Shown here: positions 1-48,442 of the stretch, one piece after another
Layout of the letters: each line of letters starts with the position of its first letter
Position numbering within the stretch: the first letter of the stretch is position 1
Source: a virus
Taxonomy: Duplodnaviria > Caudoviricetes
Strand: one strand, 5' to 3'
IMG/VR virus record: IMGVR_UViG_3300017763_003980
Length of the DNA: 64,000 bases
Made by a program: the position numbers and the translations under genes
The notes under the pieces: generated by a model
The model's input: the letters and a program-made list of their open reading frames with translations, nothing else
Database searches by the model: none
What the model was told of the DNA's origin: nothing

Positions 1-614
1 TCAATATCATATATACAGTCTAAAATAAATTTCCCATTTACTATTCTGCCCGATACACTTACTGTTGGTCCTTCTATATATTCTTGGAATATATAACCTG
101 CATCTAAATCATTATAGTGTATGTCATCTAAAAAATAACGGTATTGACTCCAATTTTCAAGAACCTTTATACCGATGCCGCCTGTACCGTTTGCAGGTTT
201 TGCTACTACAGGGAATGTTTTACGTAAAGATGTGTGAGTCATTGGTACTGGTATACCAATATTGTAAGCATGTGCAGTATAATTTTCTTTGTTTGATAGT
301 ATATTACATTGTTCTTTTGTGATACCGACTAGGTCGTGTATGTAAGGAAGCAACATGTCGTTATATAAGGGAAATATATAATCTATATTATTTTCATTTA
401 TAATTTTACGTAACTGATTAGCAAGGTCTGATCTATCTTTAGCTTTAATAGCATAGTGTTCTATACCGTCAGGAACACTAGGTATCATTTTATCTAGCAA
501 TGGAAATTGAGAGTTAGTATTTGCTTGCCAAGTACATAGTTTGTAATTTGTTAGTTCTTGTAGGGTATACCTTAAATTATTGCTTTGGTAATTTATAATT
601 ACTTTAGGCTCCAT
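1..614 (-). CDS. ATP-grasp domain ligase, 3' end truncated by the window edge (not in ORF track)
   Basis: Translated by hand from ATG at 614, open to position 1: MEPKVIINYQ...FPVVAKPANGTGGIGIKVL...YIFQEYIEGPTVSVSG. KP-x-x-G-x-G-G and QEYIEG are ATP-grasp motifs. Overlaps the stop of the upstream gene. Confidence 0.82.
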   Translation of the reverse strand, partial: MEPKVIINYQSNNLRYTLQELTNYKLCTWQANTNSQFPLLDKMIPSVPDGIEHYAIKAKDRSDLANQLRKIINENNIDYIFPLYNDMLLPYIHDLVGITKEQCNILSNKENYTAHAYNIGIPVPMTHTSLRKTFPVVAKPANGTGGIGIKVLENWSQYRYFLDDIHYNDLDAGYIFQEYIEGPTVSVSGRIVNGKFILDCIYDI

Positions 615-1224
615 AAGTAATTTTATCCCTCATAATAGTATTGGTATACTTTATTTTCATAGTAATAAATCTTATAGTAGAATCATATGGTAAGGGTTTG
701 TTGCCTAAGCAATAGTCATACAACTTATTACCAGTTAAATGGCCAGCTTTGACAAAAGCAGCATCTGTAACATTATATTTTTCTTCATATATTGAAGCAT
801 ACTTCTTACCATACTTTGAAACATCTAAGCCTTGTACATTATGTGTATTTCTTTCTTTGTTTGCTCTTTCAATGTCTTCACTGCGTACCCAAAAAAATCC
901 CCATTTGCCTCGAGACTCACATTCATTTAATTGGAATTGCATTACTTTCAAAATGTTTCTAAAATTAGCAAAATGGCTTTGGTCTTTTCTTGCCAGTAAT
1001 GTATCACATAACACCCACGGCATATTTGGTAAATCTTCGCCTGCAACAATTGCTTGTATTTCTTTATTTTTTAATACAGCATAAATGTGTCTATTAGGTT
1101 CTATAAATTTTATATTTTGCCAATGAAAATCGTTCTGTAAATTATGTGATTTAATTTGGTCGTTTATAAAATTAAAGAATAAATCTTTATGATCAGGCGT
1201 TAATTTGATACATTCATCAATCAT
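604..1224 (-). CDS. hypothetical protein, possibly GNAT-like fold
   Basis: 206-aa ORF overlapping both neighbours. The pattern HIYAVLKNKEIQAIVAG...WVLCDTLLARK only weakly suggests an acetyltransferase fold. Confidence 0.6.
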   Translation of the reverse strand: MIDECIKLTPDHKDLFFNFINDQIKSHNLQNDFHWQNIKFIEPNRHIYAVLKNKEIQAIVAGEDLPNMPWVLCDTLLARKDQSHFANFRNILKVMQFQLNECESRGKWGFFWVRSEDIERANKERNTHNVQGLDVSKYGKKYASIYEEKYNVTDAAFVKAGHLTGNKLYDYCLGNKPLPYDSTIRFITMKIKYTNTIMRDKITYGA

Positions 1225-1561
1225 AGTTTATAGTCTTTTCAATAGTATTGTACTTATTTGTGTATATTACTGTAGCTCCATCAAATTGAAAAGAAGTAGT
1301 ATAACTAAGGACTACACATGGATCTCCTATTTCGCCTAATCTTGCACCACCGCCGTTTAGTTCAAACACACCTTTGTTTCCTGGAATTACATATGTAGTC
1401 CAACGGTCACCGGTATTCATATTTACAATATCAACTTTTTGATACGGATCAAGATCAACTTTAGACATTAAATCACGACAGATAGTTACACTACCATCGT
1501 AGTCTAACGATTTATCAGTAACATGAATATTTTGAATTTTAGATTGGATATACTCTCTCAT
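1217..1561 (-). CDS. panD: aspartate 1-decarboxylase (pyruvoyl-dependent)
   Basis: 114 aa. SKI (conserved Lys), YDGSVTI (Gly-Ser autocleavage site), GDRWTTY (Arg/Tyr) and LNGGGAR are collinear with PanD. The His near the N-terminus appears replaced by Gln. Confidence 0.88.
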   Translation of the reverse strand: MREYIQSKIQNIHVTDKSLDYDGSVTICRDLMSKVDLDPYQKVDIVNMNTGDRWTTYVIPGNKGVFELNGGGARLGEIGDPCVVLSYTTSFQFDGATVIYTNKYNTIEKTINYD

Positions 1562-4714: not shown

Positions 4715-6069
4715 GCAGCTTCGTCATAGTGTGCAGTAACACCAAATGGTGCCTGCAAGTTTTTATCTCTATTACTGTGTATAACAAATACTGTATCACA
4801 GTAATCCTCATCGCCCCATGAGTCCCATGCATATCCATCTGTAAACATAAGGAACTTTTTAGGTTGAATGTCATTTTCTTTCATATAAGTCCAGTTAACC
4901 ATAAAGTCAGTGCCGCCTCCACCTTTTACTTCATAGTCTTCTAGACTATCTCCGCCATCTGCACTAAAGTCAGCTTCGTTATAAACTTCTGTATCGAAGC
5001 ACCACAATTTAATATTGTAGTCTCTGTATTCGTCCATAATGCCTTTTACTTCGCTTAAGAAGTCTTTGGCTTGCACATCACCAATTGAACCTGACATATC
5101 AATACAAATACATAGATCAATTGTTTCTTGAAAGTTCATTCCTGGAAGTATAGCACCAGTGTGCCAACCTTTTCTGCCTGGACGACTAAAAGTGTAATCA
5201 TCACGTATAGTAGACTGTATCTGCTGACGTAGTATTTCACGCCAGTTCATTTTAGGCTCTGTAAGTTCTTTAATCATACGTTCAACACCTGCAGGAACAT
5301 TACCAGCACCTGCACTCTGTGCCGCGGAAATCATATTCTCTTTGATTTCGTCACGTATCTTTCTAAGCTCTTCGTCACTGTAAGTTGGACGACCTTTACC
5401 TTTTTGGGTTCCACCGTCACCGTTGGCACTAGCGCCTTGGCCTTGTTCTTCTTCACCCGGATCTTTACCCCAGTCAACGTGTTCGTCAAGTAATTCACCA
5501 AGTTGTTTTAGTTCTTCTTCGTCATATTTCTTGTGAATATCATCATATACTTCTTCAGAAGTCCAATTTTCGTATTTAAAGTCTTGATAGCAATCAATAA
5601 TCTTTGGTTTCTCTCCAATACGATCACGTACTAATATATTGTTTACAATATAGTCAGCCGCGATATTATAAATTAATGCATCGCGATCTTCACGTCTAAT
5701 AAGGTGATCAAAAACGCAATGTAATATTTCGTGTGCAATAACAAATTCAATTTCACGATTTGAAAGTGCATTAAAGAATTGGGTATTAAAGTATAAGTTT
5801 CTGCCATCAACTGCGGCAGTAGGGCACCAGTCATCTGCACATTGTATTCTAAGGCGTGTTGCCATGTTACCAAAAAATGGATGTCTAAGGAGTAAGCCTA
5901 CACGAGCAACAATAATTCTATCTTGGACGTCTTCACGCATTGTGTCCAATTCTGCTTCAGTAAGATCTGGGTTAGGTTGCCAATGTTTTTTACCTGCAAC
6001 ATTATAAATTGGAGCATGTAAATTAACTAAATCGGAATAGTGTGTTTCTATTTGTGCCAGTGCGTTCAT
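4711..6069 (-). CDS. HExxH metallopeptidase-like plus vWA domain protein (DUF2201-type)
   Basis: AHEILH in the N-terminal part; MIDAS elements DMSGS, GGGTDF and FTDG in the C-terminal part. Confidence 0.85.
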   Translation of the reverse strand: MNALAQIETHYSDLVNLHAPIYNVAGKKHWQPNPDLTEAELDTMREDVQDRIIVARVGLLLRHPFFGNMATRLRIQCADDWCPTAAVDGRNLYFNTQFFNALSNREIEFVIAHEILHCVFDHLIRREDRDALIYNIAADYIVNNILVRDRIGEKPKIIDCYQDFKYENWTSEEVYDDIHKKYDEEELKQLGELLDEHVDWGKDPGEEEQGQGASANGDGGTQKGKGRPTYSDEELRKIRDEIKENMISAAQSAGAGNVPAGVERMIKELTEPKMNWREILRQQIQSTIRDDYTFSRPGRKGWHTGAILPGMNFQETIDLCICIDMSGSIGDVQAKDFLSEVKGIMDEYRDYNIKLWCFDTEVYNEADFSADGGDSLEDYEVKGGGGTDFMVNWTYMKENDIQPKKFLMFTDGYAWDSWGDEDYCDTVFVIHSNRDKNLQAPFGVTAHYDEAA

Positions 6070-13506: not shown

Positions 13507-13611
13507 CTAAAAACCTTTCTGTCTTAGCCTTTCTATATCTATCGGTGCTTTCATAGCTTTTGATAGTTTTTCTTGTCTTTCGCGTTCGACTTTATCATGT
13601 ACCCCATGCAT
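13507..13611 (-). CDS. possible 34-aa peptide
   Basis: MHGVHDKVERERQEKLSKAMKAPIDIERLRQKGF fills the gap after queE and overlaps its end; weak SD. Confidence 0.35.
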   Translation of the reverse strand: MHGVHDKVERERQEKLSKAMKAPIDIERLRQKGF

Positions 13612-14494
13612 TTCCGAATAAGGATATGTGGAGTCTTGGGGTGAAACGCCATCCTCTTTCCATACACGCCTCCGCAACTTCTTGAACATTAAGGTTGTAC
13701 TCTTCCGAACGTCCGCCCAGCGGCATAAGATATACTGGACAGTCGACCCCGGCGCTACGATACTCTTCGACAGCTCTAGTAACTTCATCAAAGTCATCTT
13801 TAGTAGCAACCACAAACTTAAGATAGATATTGCTACCATCCACATTGCTATACTCACTAGCAACATCAGGCTTAATAGCAGTATCCCAAGGTTCTCCGCT
13901 AACTGATAGTTTTGGGGAACAAGACCAAGTAACTTCAAATCTGTCTTGATTGCTGAGATAGTCGCAGAAATCATCTTTGAGACGTTGCGTAGTATTTGTT
14001 TCAAATGTAACATTTTTTAAATCCTGCATGCGTGGATGTTCGAATAGCTCAATGTAAAGCCGTTGCCACGCTAACAACGGTTCACCGCCTGTCATAATTA
14101 AATGTATATCTTGTCCATTATCCATTGTCCACTTACCTTCAGGAGTAAGTGAAAGAAGATGTTCTACTACTTCATCTACTTCTTTTTGCTTATTAAAATG
14201 CTTAAACTCAGGATAGATACTTGCATAAGTATCACAGCCTGTGTGTATAATAGGCAAATCGTTAAAGTCTACAGTTGTTTTATGTACATCTTTTGCAATT
14301 AATTCTGCAACCTCTGCATTATGCTTTTTACCTGCTTTGTGTTGTTCCCAACGATCTCTTGTTTCATCTGTACCAAAATTCATACAACGAAAGTTACAAC
14401 CGAAGGTACGTAGGAATACACTAGGGACTCCTACAAATCTACCTTCACCTTGTACAGAGTAAAAAGCTTCTGAGTATCTAAGCTTATTTCCCAC
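13595..14494 (-). CDS. queE: 7-carboxy-7-deazaguanine synthase (radical SAM)
   Basis: Start refined to GTG at 14494. EAFYSVQGEG, VFLRTFGCNFRC...GCDT, MTGGEP, TFETN, SCSPK and PRLH motifs. Confidence 0.9.
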   Translation of the reverse strand: MGNKLRYSEAFYSVQGEGRFVGVPSVFLRTFGCNFRCMNFGTDETRDRWEQHKAGKKHNAEVAELIAKDVHKTTVDFNDLPIIHTGCDTYASIYPEFKHFNKQKEVDEVVEHLLSLTPEGKWTMDNGQDIHLIMTGGEPLLAWQRLYIELFEHPRMQDLKNVTFETNTTQRLKDDFCDYLSNQDRFEVTWSCSPKLSVSGEPWDTAIKPDVASEYSNVDGSNIYLKFVVATKDDFDEVTRAVEEYRSAGVDCPVYLMPLGGRSEEYNLNVQEVAEACMERGWRFTPRLHISLFGNAWGT

Positions 14495-15173
14495 ACGCGA
14501 ACTCCTGCTGAAGTTTAACATTATCGATAAACTCTTTTTTAGTTGCAGGATCGTCTTTAAATGCACCACGCAATACAGTTGTTTGTGTTAGACTACTTTT
14601 TGCTCTAATACCTCTGTTCTCACAACAACCATGTGTCGCTTGTACGTATACGCCAACGTGTTCACTACCAGTTTGCTCTTGTATTGCATTTGCAATCATA
14701 ACATTAAGCTCTTCTTGTAGTGTTCCTCGCATAGCACACCATTGTGCAATACGTGTGTACTTGCTAAGACCTAATAGTTTAGGACCTGCAATAATACCAA
14801 TGTATGCCACACCTTTTACTGTTTGGTGATGATGCGAACATAAACTTGTAAGTTCACTACGCACAACCAACATACCTTCATAACCACCTTCAATGTAGTT
14901 AGGAAATGCACTTGGGTTAGGCATTGTATCATAACGACCAGACATAATTTCATTAATGTACATCTTAGCCATACGCCTTGCGGTGTCTTGACTGTTAGGA
15001 TCTGTTTTTGTATCAATTAACAGTGTTTGTAATACATTTTCGAAAGCAGGAACTGCTTCTTCAATTAGTTGTTGCTTGTCGCCTTCTTCAAGTACTTCAC
15101 TAATGTTATCATTAGCCCAGTATCTAATACCAGCTTCTTCTAGCTTTGTTTTAATTTCTTCTACTTTGCTCAC
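14484..15173 (-). CDS. folE: GTP cyclohydrolase I
   Basis: TARRMAKMY, SLCSHH, GLSKYTR, RGTLQE, HGCCENRG. Confidence 0.95.
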   Translation of the reverse strand: MSKVEEIKTKLEEAGIRYWANDNISEVLEEGDKQQLIEEAVPAFENVLQTLLIDTKTDPNSQDTARRMAKMYINEIMSGRYDTMPNPSAFPNYIEGGYEGMLVVRSELTSLCSHHHQTVKGVAYIGIIAGPKLLGLSKYTRIAQWCAMRGTLQEELNVMIANAIQEQTGSEHVGVYVQATHGCCENRGIRAKSSLTQTTVLRGAFKDDPATKKEFIDNVKLQQEFACGK

Positions 15174-35878: not shown

Positions 35879-36580
35879 CTATTTATCAATAGTTGGAGGC
35901 ATATGTAATAATTTGTATACACCGCGTATAGCATGTCCTATTAACATATGTACAATTGATAGCACCTTTTCATCACGTACATGTAAGTAAAACCCTCCCA
36001 TATGTAGATTATCGTCAATACATTGCAATGCTTTATCACCTATCCTAGACTTATCTCTATTTGCACGTAACCAATTAGCAAAGTCAGGTGATATCTTTTC
36101 ATCTTTAAGCATTATTCGAAATGGAAACTCTGGAGGGCGATCAACTATAATCGTATCATGTTCTAATAAATGTTTTCCTCTAGAATTTGGTTTCCATATA
36201 TTTTCTAAAGTATATTGAATACGATTAGTAATGTTATCCAATAAATTATCATCGTTAGTATAGATAGATAAACTAGTTCCGGTTTCGACTCTAACTTTAA
36301 AATTTCCGTTTTGATTCTTTAATATTAAGTATAAGTTCTTAGCATCTAAGTAATGATTCATAGGTACTTCACGTTCTGTTCTAAAGAATGTTTGTACTAA
36401 TGGCTGACCATTACGATAGTTACTAGCAAATTCGTCTAGCTTATCTCTTGTATAAGAAAGATTTTTACTTTTTTGAAGTTCGGCTCTAAAAATATGATTA
36501 AGTTCATTATTTAAGGATATTTTATAAAGATACTTTTTATAAAAAAGTTTTTTTGTTTCATGCAGATTCGGTGATTTCAT
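35879..36580 (-). CDS. hypothetical protein
   Basis: 233-aa ORF overlapping the clpA end. Confidence 0.7.
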   Translation of the reverse strand: MKSPNLHETKKLFYKKYLYKISLNNELNHIFRAELQKSKNLSYTRDKLDEFASNYRNGQPLVQTFFRTEREVPMNHYLDAKNLYLILKNQNGNFKVRVETGTSLSIYTNDDNLLDNITNRIQYTLENIWKPNSRGKHLLEHDTIIVDRPPEFPFRIMLKDEKISPDFANWLRANRDKSRIGDKALQCIDDNLHMGGFYLHVRDEKVLSIVHMLIGHAIRGVYKLLHMPPTIDK

Positions 36581-38804
36581 CTTCTACACAATCCAACTGT
36601 ATCTCTTTATCACGATAATCGATAATGAGTGAACCGCCATTTTTCAGTTTACCAAATAACATTTCTCTTGCTAGTTTACGTTTGATATCTTTATCGATTA
36701 CTCTTTGTAAAGGTCTTGCACCCATTTTAGGATCAAATCCTTTATCTACTAAGTAATCTAATGTATCGTCTGTAATAGTTAGTGCAATATCTTTATCTTT
36801 AACCATGTCCTTTAGCTCAACAAGGAATTTGCCAACAATTTTCATCATTATCTCTTTGCTTAGTTTAGCAAAAGTAATTGTACCATCAAGTCTATTTCTA
36901 AATTCTGGTGCAAAGAACTGTTTAAGATCAGTGTCTTCATACTGTTGTTCTAGTTCTCTTGTAAAGCCAATTGAATTTTGTTCAGCTTTATGTGAACCTA
37001 AGTTAGTTGTTAAGATAAGTGTACAATTACGTGCATCAGCTACTTTACCATTGGATCCGGTTACTTTACCATTATCCATTAGTTGCAATAAAATTTGAGA
37101 AACATCCGGGTGTGCTTTTTCAATTTCGTCAAGTAGCAGTACACAGTTAGGTGATTCCTGTAATTTAGTAATTAGGATGCCGTTATTCTCTTCATAACCT
37201 ACATATCCTGGAGGCGACCCAATAAGTTTTGCTACACTATGTCGCTCCTGGTACTCACTCATATCAAAACGTATAAGTTTAACACCAAGATTTTTTGCAA
37301 GTTGTTTTGCAGTTTCAGTTTTACCTGTGCCTGTCGGTCCCATGAATACAAACGATCCAATAGGCTTATCGTCTGCTTTCAGACCTGCTTGATTTACAAG
37401 AACTTTGTCTACAATTTGTTCAATAGCTTCGTCTTGACCATAAACAACCCCTTTAAGATTCTTCTCTAAGTTTGCAAGGCTGTCTGTTTCTTTTTCGGCA
37501 ATACGCTCTGTTGGCATATCAACTATTTTAGCAAGTTCAAATTCAATATTAGTAGCTTCAACAATTTTTTCTTTGTTTTTACTATCAGTTACTTTGAATC
37601 TTGAACACGCAATGTCAATTAGATCTATTGCTTTATCAGGAAGTTTTTTATCGCTTTGATATTTTACACTTAGTTTTATGGCTGTATCAATTGCATCTTC
37701 TGTAATAGTAGTGCCATGAAACTCTTCATAATATTTTTTAATGCCTAGTAAGATTTCTTTAGTAGTTTGATTAGACGGCTCACCTATAGTTACTCTTTGA
37801 AATCTTCTCATTAATGCACGATCAGATTCAAAATATTTTCTGTATTCTTCCCATGTAGTTGAAGCAACTACTTTTAAGTCTCCCTTAGTAAGAGCAGGCT
37901 TTAGCATGTTTGCTAAATCATTTGAATTTCCACCGCCTGCAGCGCCAGCACCATTCATCATATGTGCTTCATCAACAAACATAATAGTTTTACCTTGTTT
38001 TGTTAATGCTGATAGTACTAGTTTGAATCGCTCTTCAAAATCACCTCTATACTTTGATCCTGCAAGCATAGCTCCAATGTCAAGGTTATATACTTTGTAC
38101 TCTTTTAAAAAGCTAGGAACATTATCGTTTTCGATATTATATGCAAGTCCTTCAGCAATAGCAGTTTTACCAACACCAGGATCACCTACCATTAGCACAT
38201 TATTTTTTTGTCTACGTCCTAATGCTAATGCTAAACTTTCTAATTCAGTTGAGCGACCTATAATAGGGTCAATTTTTTGTTTTTTTACTTCTTCGTTTAA
38301 ATTAGTAGTAAATGCACGTAGAGCACGTTTTGCTTCGCTAGAAACTTCGTCCTCCTCTAACAATCCTTCTTCTATTTCATTATGTAAAAATTCTCCAAAC
38401 TTGGATTTATCAATGCCGCCTTTTTCTAGATAAAATACTGAAATAGATTTTCTTTCATTAAGCATACTCAATACTACGTCAGTTAATTCAATAGTATTCC
38501 TGCCTGCAAATAAAACTTGTGTAAATGCTCTATTAAGAACTCTTTCTACAGTATGCGTTTTTTTAGGTTTAACTTTATCATTATCAGTAATAATTTCAGT
38601 CAAATTATTTTTAAGATAGTGTTCAAGATTAGATTTGATATATTCTATGTCTGCTCCAAACATGCCTACTATATTACAGAACTTTTCTTCACAAAAAATA
38701 GCATAAAGCAGATGCTCTAAAGTAACATACTCATGCATAAGCTTTTTAGCATCATTAATTGCTTTATCAAATACTAACTGTAACTCTTTACTTGGTTCGA
38801 CCAT
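36558..38804 (-). CDS. clpA: ClpA-type Hsp100 AAA+ chaperone
   Basis: Clp N-domain (VTLEHLL), NBD1 GDPGVGKT/FVDEAH, NBD2 GPTGTGKT/LLDEIEKAH, IGF loop, GARP; no ClpB middle domain apparent. Confidence 0.9.
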   Translation of the reverse strand: MVEPSKELQLVFDKAINDAKKLMHEYVTLEHLLYAIFCEEKFCNIVGMFGADIEYIKSNLEHYLKNNLTEIITDNDKVKPKKTHTVERVLNRAFTQVLFAGRNTIELTDVVLSMLNERKSISVFYLEKGGIDKSKFGEFLHNEIEEGLLEEDEVSSEAKRALRAFTTNLNEEVKKQKIDPIIGRSTELESLALALGRRQKNNVLMVGDPGVGKTAIAEGLAYNIENDNVPSFLKEYKVYNLDIGAMLAGSKYRGDFEERFKLVLSALTKQGKTIMFVDEAHMMNGAGAAGGGNSNDLANMLKPALTKGDLKVVASTTWEEYRKYFESDRALMRRFQRVTIGEPSNQTTKEILLGIKKYYEEFHGTTITEDAIDTAIKLSVKYQSDKKLPDKAIDLIDIACSRFKVTDSKNKEKIVEATNIEFELAKIVDMPTERIAEKETDSLANLEKNLKGVVYGQDEAIEQIVDKVLVNQAGLKADDKPIGSFVFMGPTGTGKTETAKQLAKNLGVKLIRFDMSEYQERHSVAKLIGSPPGYVGYEENNGILITKLQESPNCVLLLDEIEKAHPDVSQILLQLMDNGKVTGSNGKVADARNCTLILTTNLGSHKAEQNSIGFTRELEQQYEDTDLKQFFAPEFRNRLDGTITFAKLSKEIMMKIVGKFLVELKDMVKDKDIALTITDDTLDYLVDKGFDPKMGARPLQRVIDKDIKRKLAREMLFGKLKNGGSLIIDYRDKEIQLDCVEDEITESA

Positions 38805-38805
38805 A

Positions 38806-39660
38806 CTATTTTATCTCATCTCTTAATTGTTGTATTTTATTTAACAGACTTTCGTCATTAATTTCAGGTGTTTTAACGTCAATAATAACGTGTATATTTC
38901 CCCTGCGTCTTGTATTAATATCGGGTATACCATACTCTGGAATACTGAATCTTTGTCCTGGGTTTGTGCCTTTTGGTATAGTTAATTTAACGTTTCTATT
39001 GTCTAATGTGTTTACTATTATAACACATCCTAGCAATAAGTCAAACAAATTTATGGTTTTTCTTGTAATTAAATCATTATTTCTTCGTTCCCAACCAGAT
39101 ACAGGCTTTACTTGTACAACAACATGTAAATTTCCTCTTCTTAGTTCTCTGTGCCTATCATCACCTAATCCTTCATATTGGATAGTATCACCATCTCTTG
39201 CACCAGGAGGAACATCTATGTTTATAGTTTCAATTCTGCCAGAACCTAGTTGTATTTGAGCGACTAAGCTTTTGCCTAATACTACATCTCGCAAATCTAT
39301 TTGTGCTGCGATACGCATATCTTGATTTCTAGGTTGCTGCCTTTGTCCGAATGGACTATTGCCTGAAAACATATCAGCAAACGGTGTACCAGCAAATGGG
39401 TTGCCACCTGCAAAGTCGTTTGAATTAAAATTAAAACCCTGTGGACCAGCTTGCTGAGGATCAGCAGTTCCGTATTGATCGTACATTTGACGCTTTGATG
39501 GATCTTTTAATGTACTATATGCTTCGTTAATTTTTTTGAACGTATCTTCGTTACCACCCCGATCAGGGTGATGTTGCATGCTAGCTTTTTTGTATGCTTT
39601 TTTAAGCTCTGCGTCAGATGCTTGTTTGCTTACGCCAAGTATATTATAAAAGTCGCTCAT
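38806..39660 (-). CDS. dnaJ: DnaJ-class co-chaperone (type II, no zinc finger)
   Basis: J domain with HPD, G/F-rich linker, C-terminal domain; no CxxCxGxG repeats. Confidence 0.9.
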   Translation of the reverse strand: MSDFYNILGVSKQASDAELKKAYKKASMQHHPDRGGNEDTFKKINEAYSTLKDPSKRQMYDQYGTADPQQAGPQGFNFNSNDFAGGNPFAGTPFADMFSGNSPFGQRQQPRNQDMRIAAQIDLRDVVLGKSLVAQIQLGSGRIETINIDVPPGARDGDTIQYEGLGDDRHRELRRGNLHVVVQVKPVSGWERRNNDLITRKTINLFDLLLGCVIIVNTLDNRNVKLTIPKGTNPGQRFSIPEYGIPDINTRRRGNIHVIIDVKTPEINDESLLNKIQQLRDEIK

Positions 39661-43804: not shown

Positions 43805-44536
43805 ATGGGTGCTAAACGAGCTTCTCGTAAGAGAAATCAAAATAACAACTTTTCAAATGTTGTACAACTAAACACATCATACACAAAACAAAAACAAAAA
43901 CACGTTACAATACTCCCCCGAAATAGAAATCAAGAAACTTATGTTCTAAAACTGTTAGATGACACCAAGGATATAGTCTTCGGAATCGGACCAGCTGGTA
44001 CAGGTAAAACACTACTAGCAGTTCAGGTCGCAGTTAAACAATTTCTCGAAGGGAAAATTGATAAAATCATTGTTACTAGACCAGCTGTGTCTGTAGACGA
44101 AGATTTAGGATTCTTACCAGGTACGCTAGAACAAAAGATGGCGCCTTGGACTAGACCTATTTTCGATGTATTGCGTGAATATTTCCAAGCAAAGGAAATT
44201 GAAGGTATGATAGAAGAAGGAATTATTGAAATTGCACCGCTTGCATATATGCGTGGGCGTACTTTCAAAAGAAGCTTTATTCTAGCAGATGAAATGCAAA
44301 ACGCAACCCCTAATCAAATGAAAATGTTGCTTACTAGACTAGGTGAAGAAAGTCAAATGGCTGTTACTGGAGATTTAGCACAAGCTGATCGGAAAGCAGA
44401 TAATGGATTAATTGATTTTACTAACTTACTAGCTAAAAGTAATTCAACACATTTGGACATAGTCCACTTCGCTCAAGGAGACATTGAGCGCCATAACGCT
44501 GTTAAGGAGGTGTTACAAGTTTACGGAGATGAATAA
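43805..44536 (+). CDS. phoH: PhoH-like ATPase
   Basis: GPAGTGKT, VTRPAV, LGFLPG, YMRGRTF, DEMQN, TGDLAQAD; SD AAGGAGG. Confidence 0.95.
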   Translation: MGAKRASRKRNQNNNFSNVVQLNTSYTKQKQKHVTILPRNRNQETYVLKLLDDTKDIVFGIGPAGTGKTLLAVQVAVKQFLEGKIDKIIVTRPAVSVDEDLGFLPGTLEQKMAPWTRPIFDVLREYFQAKEIEGMIEEGIIEIAPLAYMRGRTFKRSFILADEMQNATPNQMKMLLTRLGEESQMAVTGDLAQADRKADNGLIDFTNLLAKSNSTHLDIVHFAQGDIERHNAVKEVLQVYGDE

Positions 44537-44539
44537 AAT

Positions 44540-44563
44540 AATTGGGGGATTCGTCCCCCAATT
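44540..44563. terminator. bidirectional terminator between convergent genes
   Basis: Perfect stem AATTGGGGGA-TTCG-TCCCCCAATT with a UUCG loop. Confidence 0.85.
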
Positions 44564-45026
44564 ATATTACTACGTAGATTAATCCGCCGACAATACTAAG
44601 CCCAATACTTACTAAAATTCCTATTAGTATTACGTCAGCTAAAAACTTTTTGCGTTCAGCTAAAGCTCTTGCAGCCTGTAAACGTCTTTGTCTTTCTTTT
44701 TGTCTTGTCCTCATCATAGATTTATACACATCACCTTGACCTGAATACACAAACAATTCTCGTAATTGTTTTTCCATGTCTTTTGTTTTATGCTCAGCTA
44801 ATGCTACTTCTAGTGCATACGACTCGACAGATTGTTTGGAAAACATTTTACTGCCAATAGTAGGATTTTCAGATTCTGTTTTAGCTGTATCTATTTTATC
44901 TTTAGCATCAAAAAAGGTAGAGAACTGACTTGCTAAGTCTTGAGCTTCTCTACCAGCTTTTAACCCTTTGGATATTACATTAACGGCTTTGGAAGCTGCC
45001 GCTATCGCCAAAGATATTTCAACCAT
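44562..45026 (-). CDS. hypothetical protein with a C-terminal TM anchor
   Basis: 154 aa, coiled coil then VILIGILVSIGLSIVGGLIYVVI; TAATG overlap with the pqqA-like stop. Confidence 0.7.
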   Translation of the reverse strand: MVEISLAIAAASKAVNVISKGLKAGREAQDLASQFSTFFDAKDKIDTAKTESENPTIGSKMFSKQSVESYALEVALAEHKTKDMEKQLRELFVYSGQGDVYKSMMRTRQKERQRRLQAARALAERKKFLADVILIGILVSIGLSIVGGLIYVVI

Positions 45027-45097
45027 TACCTCGTTGAAAAATACATAGTGATTTCAAATCCAAGTCTTATATTTTCGTAAGTTGGTTTAGTCCACAT
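45026..45097 (-). CDS. pqqA: PqqA-like PQQ precursor peptide, 23 aa (not in ORF track)
   Basis: MWTKPTYENIRLGFEITMYFSTR. Matches the PqqA pattern W-x-K-P...R-x-G-x-E-x-T-x-Y with the E-x3-Y core. SD AGAGGAGA 5 nt upstream. Confidence 0.88.
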   Translation of the reverse strand: MWTKPTYENIRLGFEITMYFSTR

Positions 45098-45109
45098 AAT
45101 TCTTCTCCT

Positions 45110-46348
45110 CTATAAGTTTTTCCACGTAAATGCTCCAAAGAACATTTCATCTTCTGACATTTGCCCCCAAGGTACACTTCTGCTTGGATCAGGATTCATA
45201 GGATTATCTTCTGAATTATCAAATGCTCCTTCTACATGCAACACAGTACCTGCAGGGATAAATTTAGGTTCACGCCAAGTATATGAAAGTTGCCAAGCAT
45301 AGTCATATTTGGGAATATCTATTAGTTCTTCCCATGTTCCATCTGGATAATATGCTGTTGCTTTCATGCTTTTACCACGAAAATGCATATGCGGTAAAAA
45401 TGTATGTAAGTTTACATTGTTTTGTACAGTTATTTCAGCTTTTTGTACAAAGTTAGGATCATAAGGAGGTATATTTGTCCAAGTGTTAGGGAATATACAA
45501 GCACAATCACCTGCCATTCTTTCTTGAGGTACTACTCCCTCATCATGAAAGTATAAACCAATCCTTGCTTTGTCTGTTCTAGCAGTTCCGTCTGGTGTAT
45601 AGTGTAACTGTAGATTTACAATTGATCCTGCACGTAGTAACCCACCAGTATTTTCGTCATAGTATTCTGGATCGCCGCCAGGAACATATGCACTAATAGT
45701 TGCATAGTTCATATCTCCTTGGCCTTCGCCTTGTGCGCCTAAAAGATTCATATTTCGTTCGCCAGGTAAACTTACTGTATTAAGCATATGATGCATTACT
45801 GTAGGCTCGCTTGGTAAAAACTGTGATCCACGTAGCCAACGATCCTCTGTTAGTCCTAGGTCTGCTTGTGTGTATCTATAAGGTATTGCATTAGGTCCAA
45901 GTGTTCCTATTGCTGGTATTTCTTGTGCTGGTACCTCAATAATCATATCAGGTTCACCATGTACCCATTCTGAAGTTGAGTATACTGTTTCTGTTAGAGG
46001 ATCTCTATCACCTTCTACAGGAGTACCTGCATCAATCCATTGTACAATAGTCTCTATTTCTGTATGACTTAGTGTCCTGTGGTTTATAATACGGTCTGCA
46101 TACACAGGATTTATTTGTCCTGGTGGCATATGTTTAGTTTCAATAGCTTCTTTAATTGCAGGAGCAAATGCTTGTAGCATTTTATAGTTAGTCATTGCCC
46201 ACGGTGCTATACCGTTTTCTCTATGACATGCTTGACACTGCTCTACAAATATAGGTGCTACGTTTTCAGCATAGTCTATATCTACATCTTCATGTGCATA
46301 TGCAACAGATGTTAATAAACTACCTACTAGCAATATTAATTTTTTCAT
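45110..46348 (-). CDS. secreted cytochrome c / copper type II (PHM/DbM-like) monooxygenase
   Basis: Signal peptide (VAYA), CQACH heme motif, CuH ligands MHHM and LHY, CuM ligands PHMH and DEM. Confidence 0.78.
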   Translation of the reverse strand: MKKLILLVGSLLTSVAYAHEDVDIDYAENVAPIFVEQCQACHRENGIAPWAMTNYKMLQAFAPAIKEAIETKHMPPGQINPVYADRIINHRTLSHTEIETIVQWIDAGTPVEGDRDPLTETVYSTSEWVHGEPDMIIEVPAQEIPAIGTLGPNAIPYRYTQADLGLTEDRWLRGSQFLPSEPTVMHHMLNTVSLPGERNMNLLGAQGEGQGDMNYATISAYVPGGDPEYYDENTGGLLRAGSIVNLQLHYTPDGTARTDKARIGLYFHDEGVVPQERMAGDCACIFPNTWTNIPPYDPNFVQKAEITVQNNVNLHTFLPHMHFRGKSMKATAYYPDGTWEELIDIPKYDYAWQLSYTWREPKFIPAGTVLHVEGAFDNSEDNPMNPDPSRSVPWGQMSEDEMFFGAFTWKNL

Positions 46349-47603
46349 TCCTTTCTTCCTTTAGTTTCTCATATCCTTCTTCGTCTAGATGTGTAATAGC
46401 AAGCCAAGCATGTGTCATTTCATCACCTGTTCTTGATCCTCCCATTACCCACATATCAGGGTCTGGATTGTTTGGATTGTTTGCAGTATTATCGTACCAC
46501 TGCTTTAATATAATAACTGCTCCTGCAGGTATTAATGGTGCTACGTCTGGTTCGTACAAATGGCTGTGATGCCATGTTGCACTCCAATTACTTACTTGGC
46601 TAATCTGTTCTGTACGTCCTGTGTTAGGATAGAATATTTCCAAACTTGCTGCGTTCATACGCAAGTGTCCGTGCGGTTGAAAACTATCTAATCTTACAGG
46701 ATGATCAAAACTGTGAAACCCTTGGGTCATATGAAAACCATGCGGGGGGATAACTATATCTGCCTGATCTCCTAAGCGATATAAACTTAAATCTTGTTTG
46801 TATTTCAGTTCTTGGCTTTCCTCTTCGCTGTATAACCAAAGACCAATTTCCACTACGTTGTCTCGAATAACTGATCCTGGTGCCATTGCTCCAAGTCCAC
46901 CTGGGAACATATGTATGTCCCAACGTACTTGCGAGTTCGCCGGTAGTGTACGACATACTCCTTCTGGAACAATCTCTCCCCACTTTCCCATAGCATACTC
47001 CGTGAGCATGCCTTCACGACCTCCGTCGATCACAACATTAGAGTTTGCATGATGTACAACTGATTTTGCATCACCTCTAGGCTTTACTTGGACTGCTTTT
47101 ATACATCTATCTTCAGTTAGCCCTGTTGGTACTAGGTGCTTATGCCACAGATCGTTACCACTTGCTGGAATATCTATTGGAACGCTAGGAATAATTAGAT
47201 TAGGTTGACCAAGGTCACCAGCAAAATTCCATTCGTCAGGGTCAGCAAGATTTGGAGGTTGGACGACTATATCGTTATCTCCATATTGGGAGCCTGAGTC
47301 AACCCAAGCTACTACAGTATCTATTTCTTTTTGTGACAGTCGCCAATCACCTTGTAGGTCTTGTATGCCTATACCGTGATCGTATGCATACGGTGGCATT
47401 TCTCTATTAGCTACTTTCATTTGTATTAAAGGTGCCCACGGACGAACTGCTTCATAGCCTACAAAACTCATAGGACCAATGCCGCCTGGACGATGACATA
47501 CTACACAATTGTCGTTTATTATTTGTGCAACACTATCAGTATAAGTCTGAGCAGATAATGTCATTGGGAATAGCACAGCGAACGCTGCGATTAATTTTCT
47601 CAT
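46320..47603 (-). CDS. secreted cytochrome c / copper type II monooxygenase (paralogue)
   Basis: Signal peptide (TLSA), CVVCH heme motif, VHHA, IHM, PHGH, DEM. Confidence 0.78.
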   Translation of the reverse strand: MRKLIAAFAVLFPMTLSAQTYTDSVAQIINDNCVVCHRPGGIGPMSFVGYEAVRPWAPLIQMKVANREMPPYAYDHGIGIQDLQGDWRLSQKEIDTVVAWVDSGSQYGDNDIVVQPPNLADPDEWNFAGDLGQPNLIIPSVPIDIPASGNDLWHKHLVPTGLTEDRCIKAVQVKPRGDAKSVVHHANSNVVIDGGREGMLTEYAMGKWGEIVPEGVCRTLPANSQVRWDIHMFPGGLGAMAPGSVIRDNVVEIGLWLYSEEESQELKYKQDLSLYRLGDQADIVIPPHGFHMTQGFHSFDHPVRLDSFQPHGHLRMNAASLEIFYPNTGRTEQISQVSNWSATWHHSHLYEPDVAPLIPAGAVIILKQWYDNTANNPNNPDPDMWVMGGSRTGDEMTHAWLAITHLDEEGYEKLKEERNEKINIASR

Positions 47604-47625
47604 AGTAATTCTCCTGGAACTTACT

Positions 47626-47655
47626 AATATTTAAGCACATCTTTTTAAAAATGCA
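47626..47655 (-). promoter_or_regulatory. promoter for the monooxygenase-pqqA operon
   Basis: TTGCAT-N17-TAAATA, which also reads as a late-like TTAAATA; SD CAGGAG downstream; coordinates approximate. Confidence 0.45.
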
Positions 47656-47689
47656 ACCTAAATACTAGCTTTGTTACAAAAGATTACAT

Positions 47690-48442
47690 TTAGTCTAGGT
47701 CGGAAGGAACATCAGTGTCGCGGGCGTCAACTATATAGTTGTTTTTTTCATCTGCCATAAAGAAGCGCCAGCCTTTGAATGTAAGTACTGCTGTTTTTAT
47801 TAATGAATGATATCTTCGACTTGTTGTTTTACTGATATCACCTGTTCTTGCTACTACAGTTTCTCTGGGATATGGTATAACTTGAACCAAAGGAGTGCCT
47901 TGTTTGATAACAAAGTCTTTATTTGTTTTTAGCATTATGTTTATTGGAGTTTGACCTGGTCCTTTATCATGATTGATAGAACCAGGAACAGCTTCAAAGT
48001 AAGGATTTTCGTGAAAAAGCATTGGCAAGTATGTTGTACTCCATCCTTTTTTAGTATACATAATCCACGGATTATCTAATTTGACCGGAGTTTGTAAACT
48101 AAATCTTGTATTTAAAAAATCTCCCATTTGCTCTTTACTGTGATATGCGTGATTGCAATCTGGATCAGAGTATGTAACATGGGGATGGTCGTTTATTATT
48201 TTAACATCAATGTCACACCAAGCAGGTATTACAAATCCTTGTCCTATATAATGTTGCAACCCCGGACAAATTTTGACACTGTAAACATTTTGTTTTTGAA
48301 ATTCTCCCTTATGTAAAACTGTAGGAAGATTTTTAAATTTTTCTGGTATAAATTCTGCCGCGGGTCTAATTGGGCTATACTTCCGTGTTGCCCAATTTTC
48401 ACATTCAAATAATATAGTTGGTTCTGGTTTCTTTTTAAACAT
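47690..48442 (-). CDS. hypothetical protein (DUF6065/dUTPase-like beta fold possible)
   Basis: PWIMYTKKGWS and GTPLVQVIP motifs. Confidence 0.6.
   Translation of the reverse strand: MFKKKPEPTILFECENWATRKYSPIRPAAEFIPEKFKNLPTVLHKGEFQKQNVYSVKICPGLQHYIGQGFVIPAWCDIDVKIINDHPHVTYSDPDCNHAYHSKEQMGDFLNTRFSLQTPVKLDNPWIMYTKKGWSTTYLPMLFHENPYFEAVPGSINHDKGPGQTPINIMLKTNKDFVIKQGTPLVQVIPYPRETVVARTGDISKTTSRRYHSLIKTAVLTFKGWRFFMADEKNNYIVDARDTDVPSDLD

Follow-up and report, generated by a model that had tools for sequence, protein, structure and literature searches.

The 64,000-nucleotide stretch of phage DNA analyzed here (hereafter the window) carries, at positions 45026-45097 of the minus strand, a genuine phage-borne and stand-alone pqqA, the gene for the precursor peptide of pyrroloquinoline quinone (PQQ); its product is PqqA by all of the sequence tests that we applied. 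Judging from its sequence and its surroundings, this pqqA is most likely an auxiliary metabolic gene (AMG) of the phage. We consider it probable that the gene would serve in infection to resupply the consumed PQQ precursor to the PqqB-E enzymes of the host. The features of the locus to which we refer below are the following (PHM, peptidylglycine alpha-hydroxylating monooxygenase; DBH, dopamine beta-hydroxylase; SD, Shine-Dalgarno sequence).

44538-44565, both strands: bidirectional terminator-like hairpin, a 12-bp stem followed by a T run
44562-45026, minus strand: ORF for a 154-aa protein with a C-terminal membrane anchor, coupled to pqqA via TAATG
45026-45097, minus strand: pqqA, a 23-codon ORF for the PQQ precursor peptide MWTKPTYENIRLGFEITMYFSTR, with HMM matches
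45104-45111, minus strand: SD of pqqA, AGAGGAGA, read from the sequence
45110-46348, minus strand: secreted haem-c (CQACH) and PHM/DBH-like dicopper monooxygenase of 412 aa, directly upstream of pqqA
46320-47603, minus strand: paralogue of the 412-aa monooxygenase, 427 aa (CVVCH), with the invariant ligands kept

The original prediction placed a complete hidden gene in the 83-nt gap between the listed ORFs of the 412-aa and 154-aa proteins, and its description of the SD, the 23-codon frame and the overlapping stop and start codons was correct in every part. The gene is 72 nt long. The AGGAG core of its SD lies at 45109-45105, 7 nt 5' of the ATG (45097-45095), and the SD overlaps the stop codon TAG (45112-45110) of the upstream 412-aa gene. 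The stop codon of pqqA is the TAA at 45028-45026, the final A of which also opens the ATG start codon of the 154-aa gene, giving TAATG. The gene is a short ribosomal ORF with an SD, a start and a stop of its own, as in a class of which the norm is ~20-40 aa. A degenerate codon pattern for PqqA matched the window only once, while 0.00 matches were expected from 100 shuffles.

Both of the HMMs for PqqA recovered the peptide above their curated cut-offs, in agreement with the identity originally proposed. The score was 40 bits against Pfam PF08042 (cut-off 21.1, E 3.6e-10) and 48.2 bits against NCBIfam TIGR02107 (cut-off 20, E 6.5e-13), and the whole model length was covered in each case. The peptide has the WTKP leader motif, and the E-x3-Y core claimed for it is present in the translation, with Glu15 and Tyr19 in place (E15-I-T-M-Y19). 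The Glu and Tyr of the E-x3-Y core in PqqA become the skeleton of PQQ, and we take Glu15 and Tyr19 of the phage peptide to be equivalent to the corresponding positions in Klebsiella pneumoniae PqqA. It had also been anticipated that standard gene callers would miss a gene of this size. Indeed, the pqqA ORF was skipped and the gap left empty in all six public metagenome contigs containing this phage, and the copies in cultured phages (see below) are unannotated as well.

The window is clearly phage DNA. The best matches of its family-B T4-type DNA polymerase are those in Phosso and Atu_ph07, both jumbo phages (45-50% identity), and in the group of phages of ~350 kb. The window further encodes a 1804-aa baseplate-type structural protein and a gp9/10-like protein, together with a clamp loader, ThyX, MazG, a 3'-5' exonuclease, PhoH, a GH108 lysin, DnaJ and a Clp-type ATPase. 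In the region 36558-39660 (minus strand), the gene of the Clp-type AAA+ protein (748 aa; Clp_N, ClpB_D2-small) adjoins that of a full-length DnaJ (284 aa). Phage genes flank pqqA on both sides, and the G+C content of the phage DNA is 36%. Many marine metagenomes contain the same phage sequence, the contigs of which reach 280 kb (ENA ERZ23499362 scaffold_3), and it also occurs in seawater runs of many studies; the exact 72-nt pqqA had no match in IMG/VR.

On the minus strand, the gene order is 427 aa, 412 aa (with a 29-nt overlap), a 12-nt gap, pqqA, TAATG and 154 aa. The hairpin at 44538-44565 ends this four-gene unit and the convergent phoH alike, and no further minus-strand terminator-like site was detected within 44565-47603. 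From this arrangement, pqqA appears to be co-transcribed with the two monooxygenase genes and the gene of the membrane-anchored protein. Within 44000-47700, contigs from four metatranscriptome runs matched phoH, the 154-aa gene and the two monooxygenase genes in part, with 100% identity; no RNA-library contig among the matches listed covered 45026-45097, and such libraries can contain DNA. The 154-aa protein matched no Pfam or NCBIfam family. Its homologues are encoded near pqqA in the viral loci L007 and L145 (49%) and adjoining pqqA in another, L103 (~30%).

It had been noted that no pqqB-E genes lie in the window, and our tblastn searches with bacterial PqqB, PqqC, PqqD and PqqE agreed with this observation. 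At E<=0.01, none of the four was detected in the window, in its public copies (L122-127) or in a related phage (L145-147), and none was detected in 1.03 Mb comprising 120 other viral loci. The queries were PqqB, PqqD, PqqE and PqqC of five bacterial operons, the identities of which were confirmed on L143 by NCBIfam models above cut-off. A search of the rest of the genome for pqqBCDE had been proposed in addition, and the 10 kb beyond the window start contained no PqqB-E matches; the orphan status of the phage pqqA thus holds for ~74 kb of the ~280-kb genome. A 489-aa radical SAM enzyme encoded beyond the window start is of the B12-binding methyltransferase type, unlike PqqE, and the weak radical SAM match inside the window (13595-14569) gave no PqqE match by tblastn. 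The 26 longest pqqA-bearing viral records, including complete Melnitz and five records estimated to be >=96% complete, contained no PqqE above cut-off and no PqqC, and in only two of them did the PqqE model match a radical SAM protein, and weakly so. Being encoded together with pqqB, C, D and E is typical of the PqqA family, albeit not obligatory, and the phage pqqA does not share this trait. The same phage also possesses a tailoring-like cluster outward of window positions 1-1561 (L156:9664-20621). This cluster comprises a PanD-like aspartate decarboxylase, an ATP-grasp ligase, a PhyH dioxygenase, a B12-type radical SAM protein, a fatty-acid desaturase and a second radical SAM protein, none of which was PqqE-like.

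Lone intact pqqA genes are common in viruses, and the degenerate pattern scan detected them in at least 120 IMG/VR contigs. Among the 120 matches listed, codon 24 was an in-frame stop in every one, 109 had an ATG directly 5' of the Trp codon, and 119 had an SD-like 4-mer at the corresponding place. These three features were not imposed by the search pattern; E-x3-Y was also found in all of the 120 copies listed, but the pattern required it. Pairwise pN/pS of the viral pqqA was 0.22 over all codons and 0.43 at the ten pattern-free codons, values that are only indicative and understate the amino-acid change because the search pattern fixes several residues.

A tblastn search of GenBank phages with the phage PqqA matched 12 records, among them the cultured OM43/LD28 phages Melnitz, Venkman, MEP301, MEP401, MEP402 and P19250A. 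In each of these, pqqA is either unannotated or lies beneath an opposite-strand 'hypothetical protein'. The latter is the case in Melnitz (L001, MZ577097.1), in which the unannotated pqqA occupies 5001-5066 of the plus strand and the opposite-strand MelnitzEXVC044M_152 'hypothetical protein' is annotated at the same place; nothing is annotated at pqqA in the remaining cultured Methylophilales phages matched. Closer to the window, its pqqA and that of L145 differ in two amino acids and three synonymous codons, one of the latter being the TCA/AGT switch through which Ser21 is kept. The conservation in related phages suggested as a check was found: the frame and the E/Y pair are kept, a serine has switched codon families, and pN/pS stays below 1 in the pattern-ascertained set. 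As a host-derived metabolic gene that is flanked by phage genes and conserved across independent phages, pqqA shares these traits with AMGs.

We compared 122 viral copies of PqqA, namely the 120 IMG/VR matches, the window and L145. The form ...EMRFGFEVTMYV... was found in 108 of them and is also that of OM43 phages, and the form in the window is ...YENIRLGFEITMYF.... A scan for the pattern of the window subtype, in one genome per each of 185,579 species, yielded 17 matches, 16 of which were in Pseudomonadales, Pseudohongiella or other gammaproteobacterial/Pseudomonadota MAGs. The seventeenth, L133 (WTHG01000117.1, filed as a Verrucomicrobiales MAG), is on a 5-kb contig of 38% G+C with small ORFs after pqqA and no pqqB; judging from these characteristics, it is probably a phage fragment binned in a bacterial MAG. 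The closest bacterial PqqA, of a gammaproteobacterial MAG, is identical to the phage PqqA at 22 of the 23 residues, the single difference being at a non-core residue, and the Pseudohongiella copies are identical at 21. At the nucleotide level, the phage pqqA shares 82-85% identity with the Pseudohongiella-like copies.

The pqq operon of the Pseudohongiella-like genomes has the order pqqA-B-D-E-C. Each of the five candidate host genomes searched possesses one pqqA, and PqqE was found above cut-off beside it. The PQQ alcohol dehydrogenase family had 17-40 matches per candidate genome (n=5), in contrast to none above cut-off in 14 control genomes. In these five genomes of 2-4 Mb (G001-G005, behind L128, L136, L143, L138 and L131), the PQQ dehydrogenase family and the haem-c/PHM-like family, the latter with 12-21 matches per genome, are both strikingly expanded. 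Altogether, the marine Pseudohongiella-like Pseudomonadales are the probable donor lineage of the phage pqqA, and similarity of the genes further leads us to infer that they are likely the host lineage. The deduction in the original prediction that the host makes PQQ is supported because the lineage with a near-identical PqqA has both pqqB-E and PQQ dehydrogenases: the closest bacterial PqqAs head pqqA-B-D-E-C operons in genomes rich in the latter.

The 412-aa and 427-aa proteins encoded upstream of pqqA are paralogues sharing 28% identity, each with a signal peptide and one CxxCH motif. The 412-aa protein has weak Pfam matches to cytochrome c and Cu2_monoox_C. Ten of its residues (C38, C41, H42, M74, H186, H187, H249, H320, H322 and M402) do not vary among 19 homologues from phages and bacteria and, as read from the alignment, are a haem-c site plus the copper ligand set HH...H...HxH...M. 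The AlphaFold model of this protein (mean pLDDT 72) matches PHM and DBH over ~300 columns with E ~1e-10. No tblastn match to the 412-aa protein was found among GenBank phages, and the haem-c/PHM-like family counts 1752 relatives in the database. Those bacterial homologues that are closest bear an extra N-terminal AhpC/TSA redoxin domain, which is missing from the phage versions. The 427-aa gene shares 72% nucleotide identity over 1169 nt with a gene of the candidate host genome G005.

The three-gene cassette of the two monooxygenase genes and pqqA recurs, as 431 aa, 414 aa and pqqA, in a different phage of ~115-125 kb (L145-147, L007); the regions compared were L145:6592-9357 and L007:1-1626 against window 45026-47603. 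Between the two phages the cassette is ~82% identical in protein and 78-79% in nucleotide sequence, while their PhoH proteins are only 29% identical, which suggests that the cassette moves between phages. As pqqA does not adjoin the monooxygenase genes in the candidate donor genomes, the nearest one in G004 being 23 kb away, the linkage was probably assembled in phages and not captured whole.

For the role of the phage pqqA, we propose a supply of substrate to the host pathway. Each PQQ that is made costs one PqqA. Host PqqD would bind the phage peptide and host PqqE would cross-link its Glu15 and Tyr19, after which the cross-linked peptide would be trimmed and matured into PQQ by a host peptidase, PqqB and PqqC. 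Since PqqA is consumed with every PQQ and the candidate host genomes possess a single pqqA next to many apo-enzymes to be filled, the phage copy would keep substrate flowing, so that host PqqD, E, B and C would stay fed after host transcription falls. The PQQ added in this way would sustain periplasmic quinoprotein dehydrogenases and the energy supply for phage production. Carriage of the precursor alone by phages hints that the supply of PqqA may be what limits PQQ synthesis during infection.

The neighbours of pqqA invite another reading, in which PQQ-loaded host dehydrogenases would pass electrons to the two phage PHM-like copper monooxygenases via their fused cytochrome c domains, and these enzymes would then oxidise some periplasmic or envelope substrate. 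We consider this reading unlikely, albeit several observations are in line with it. The four genes form a tight unit (29-nt overlap, 12-nt gap, TAATG and a single terminator), the three-gene cassette is ~82% identical in phages of which the PhoH proteins are only 29% identical, and the monooxygenases combine a PHM fold with invariant Cu and haem ligands. Both gene types, moreover, come from one bacterial lineage (12-21 monooxygenase and 17-40 PQQ dehydrogenase matches per genome), in which some members of the monooxygenase family lie 0.4-2 kb from PQQ dehydrogenase genes. On the closed chromosome of G004, however, only 2 of ~19 family members have a PQQ dehydrogenase gene within 5 kb and ~1 is expected; this count is near chance, and we thus rejected the adjacency in hosts as evidence. 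About 118 of the 120 other viral pqqA loci listed have no such neighbours, and co-location in the window may merely reflect joint capture from one host. We are likewise doubtful of the wider proposal that pqqA, the two monooxygenases and the membrane-anchored protein would be one mobile phage module rewiring periplasmic oxidation, with hydroxylation of an envelope or dissolved-organic substrate. In such a module, electrons arriving via the fused cytochrome c would replace, at the copper sites, the ascorbate of animal PHM/DBH.

Three other roles for the peptide seem less plausible still. The peptide might tie up host PqqD/PqqE or another PqqA-binding protein as a decoy or regulator, lowering or retiming PQQ synthesis, as a PqqD-binding leader peptide could in principle compete with host PqqA. 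We regard this role as improbable because every substrate feature is retained: Glu15, Tyr19 and the remaining core are kept, although the reactive residues are expected to be lost in a decoy, and the residue differing from the bacterial PqqA is a single non-core one. E-x3-Y is also present in all of the 120 viral copies listed, though required by the pattern, and stopping PQQ would reduce host energy during infection. It is just as improbable, in our view, that pqqA is a passenger, taken up along with the host-derived monooxygenase genes beside it and of no benefit to the phage. The cassette is indeed host-derived and so tiny a gene is cheap to carry, but both here and in a relative of 78% nucleotide identity with a serine codon-family switch, the frame is whole and the start, SD and stop are kept. 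Furthermore, lone pqqA without pqqB-E occurs in at least 120 unrelated viral contexts, and in the candidate donors pqqA is not found beside the monooxygenase genes (at 23 kb in G004). Finally, the phage encodes several radical SAM enzymes as well as the tailoring-like cluster just beyond the window start, for which the peptide might be the precursor of another modified product. This role is highly improbable: the radical SAM and tailoring genes are at least 45 kb off, belong to the B12 methyltransferase or QueE type and do not resemble PqqE/PqqD, and the PqqE model matched a radical SAM protein, weakly, in only 2 of the 26 long pqqA-bearing records.

Phage pqqA itself is of an already known kind, as it was reported in 2020 and is widespread in viral contigs. 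Viral PqqA was described in population VP_266 of Lake Baikal phages, predicted to infect Methylophilaceae, and was put forward there as an AMG (Coutinho et al., 2020; Microbiome 8:163, PMC7678222). In a sediment study of 2026, viral pqqA, pqqD and pqqE were listed among phosphorus-cycling genes (PMC13188868), and in the paper on Melnitz, PQQ appears solely as an additive to the medium (PMC9004378). The novelty of the window lies in a PqqA subtype and donor lineage that are not of methylotrophs, together with a three-gene cassette with haem-c copper monooxygenases. Our results add a second bacterial lineage to the range of phage pqqA, which was previously reported for phages of methanol-oxidising Methylophilaceae. 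They also support the general rule that phages bring the sacrificial PQQ precursor alone and never the enzymes. Standard gene callers do not see a metabolic gene of 72 nt, and surveys of auxiliary genes in viruses therefore lack it. That pqqA is linked to PHM-like monooxygenases gives a testable lead on the electron source of these unusual phage enzymes.

Among the known systems most similar to the window is VP_266 of Lake Baikal, in which a phage gene for the precursor peptide was likewise read as an AMG boosting PQQ-dependent oxidation (PMC7678222). The Lake Baikal phages are of freshwater and of methylotroph hosts, and carry a viral methanol dehydrogenase alongside (PMC7678222). In contrast, the window is marine, has a PqqA subtype that is not of Methylophilaceae, lacks a quinoprotein gene within its bounds and shows the linkage to PHM-like monooxygenases. 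The OM43/LD28 phages resemble the window in possessing a lone 23-codon pqqA overlooked by annotation, and complete Melnitz has neither PqqE nor PqqC. Nevertheless, their peptide is of the Methylophilaceae type (57-63% identical over the aligned residues), and the phages belong to other lineages and have other genes next to pqqA. Bacterial PqqA (PF08042, TIGR02107; the Pseudohongiella/Pseudomonadales subtype being ...YEN[IV]RLGFEITMYF...) is, like the phage peptide, of 23 aa with the WTKP leader and the Glu15-x3-Tyr19 core. The bacterial copies head pqqA-B-D-E-C operons, whereas the phage copy follows two monooxygenase genes and has no pqq partner. Cyanophage psbA, which encodes the D1 protein, is the model of a phage gene resupplying a host component that is consumed fast. 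Its product is a structural subunit of the photosystem, the expression of which in infection has been shown, whereas pqqA is known here from sequence and encodes a sacrificial substrate. Under the supply reading that we favor, the two would be alike in that the phage brings the used-up component alone and the host supplies the remaining machinery.
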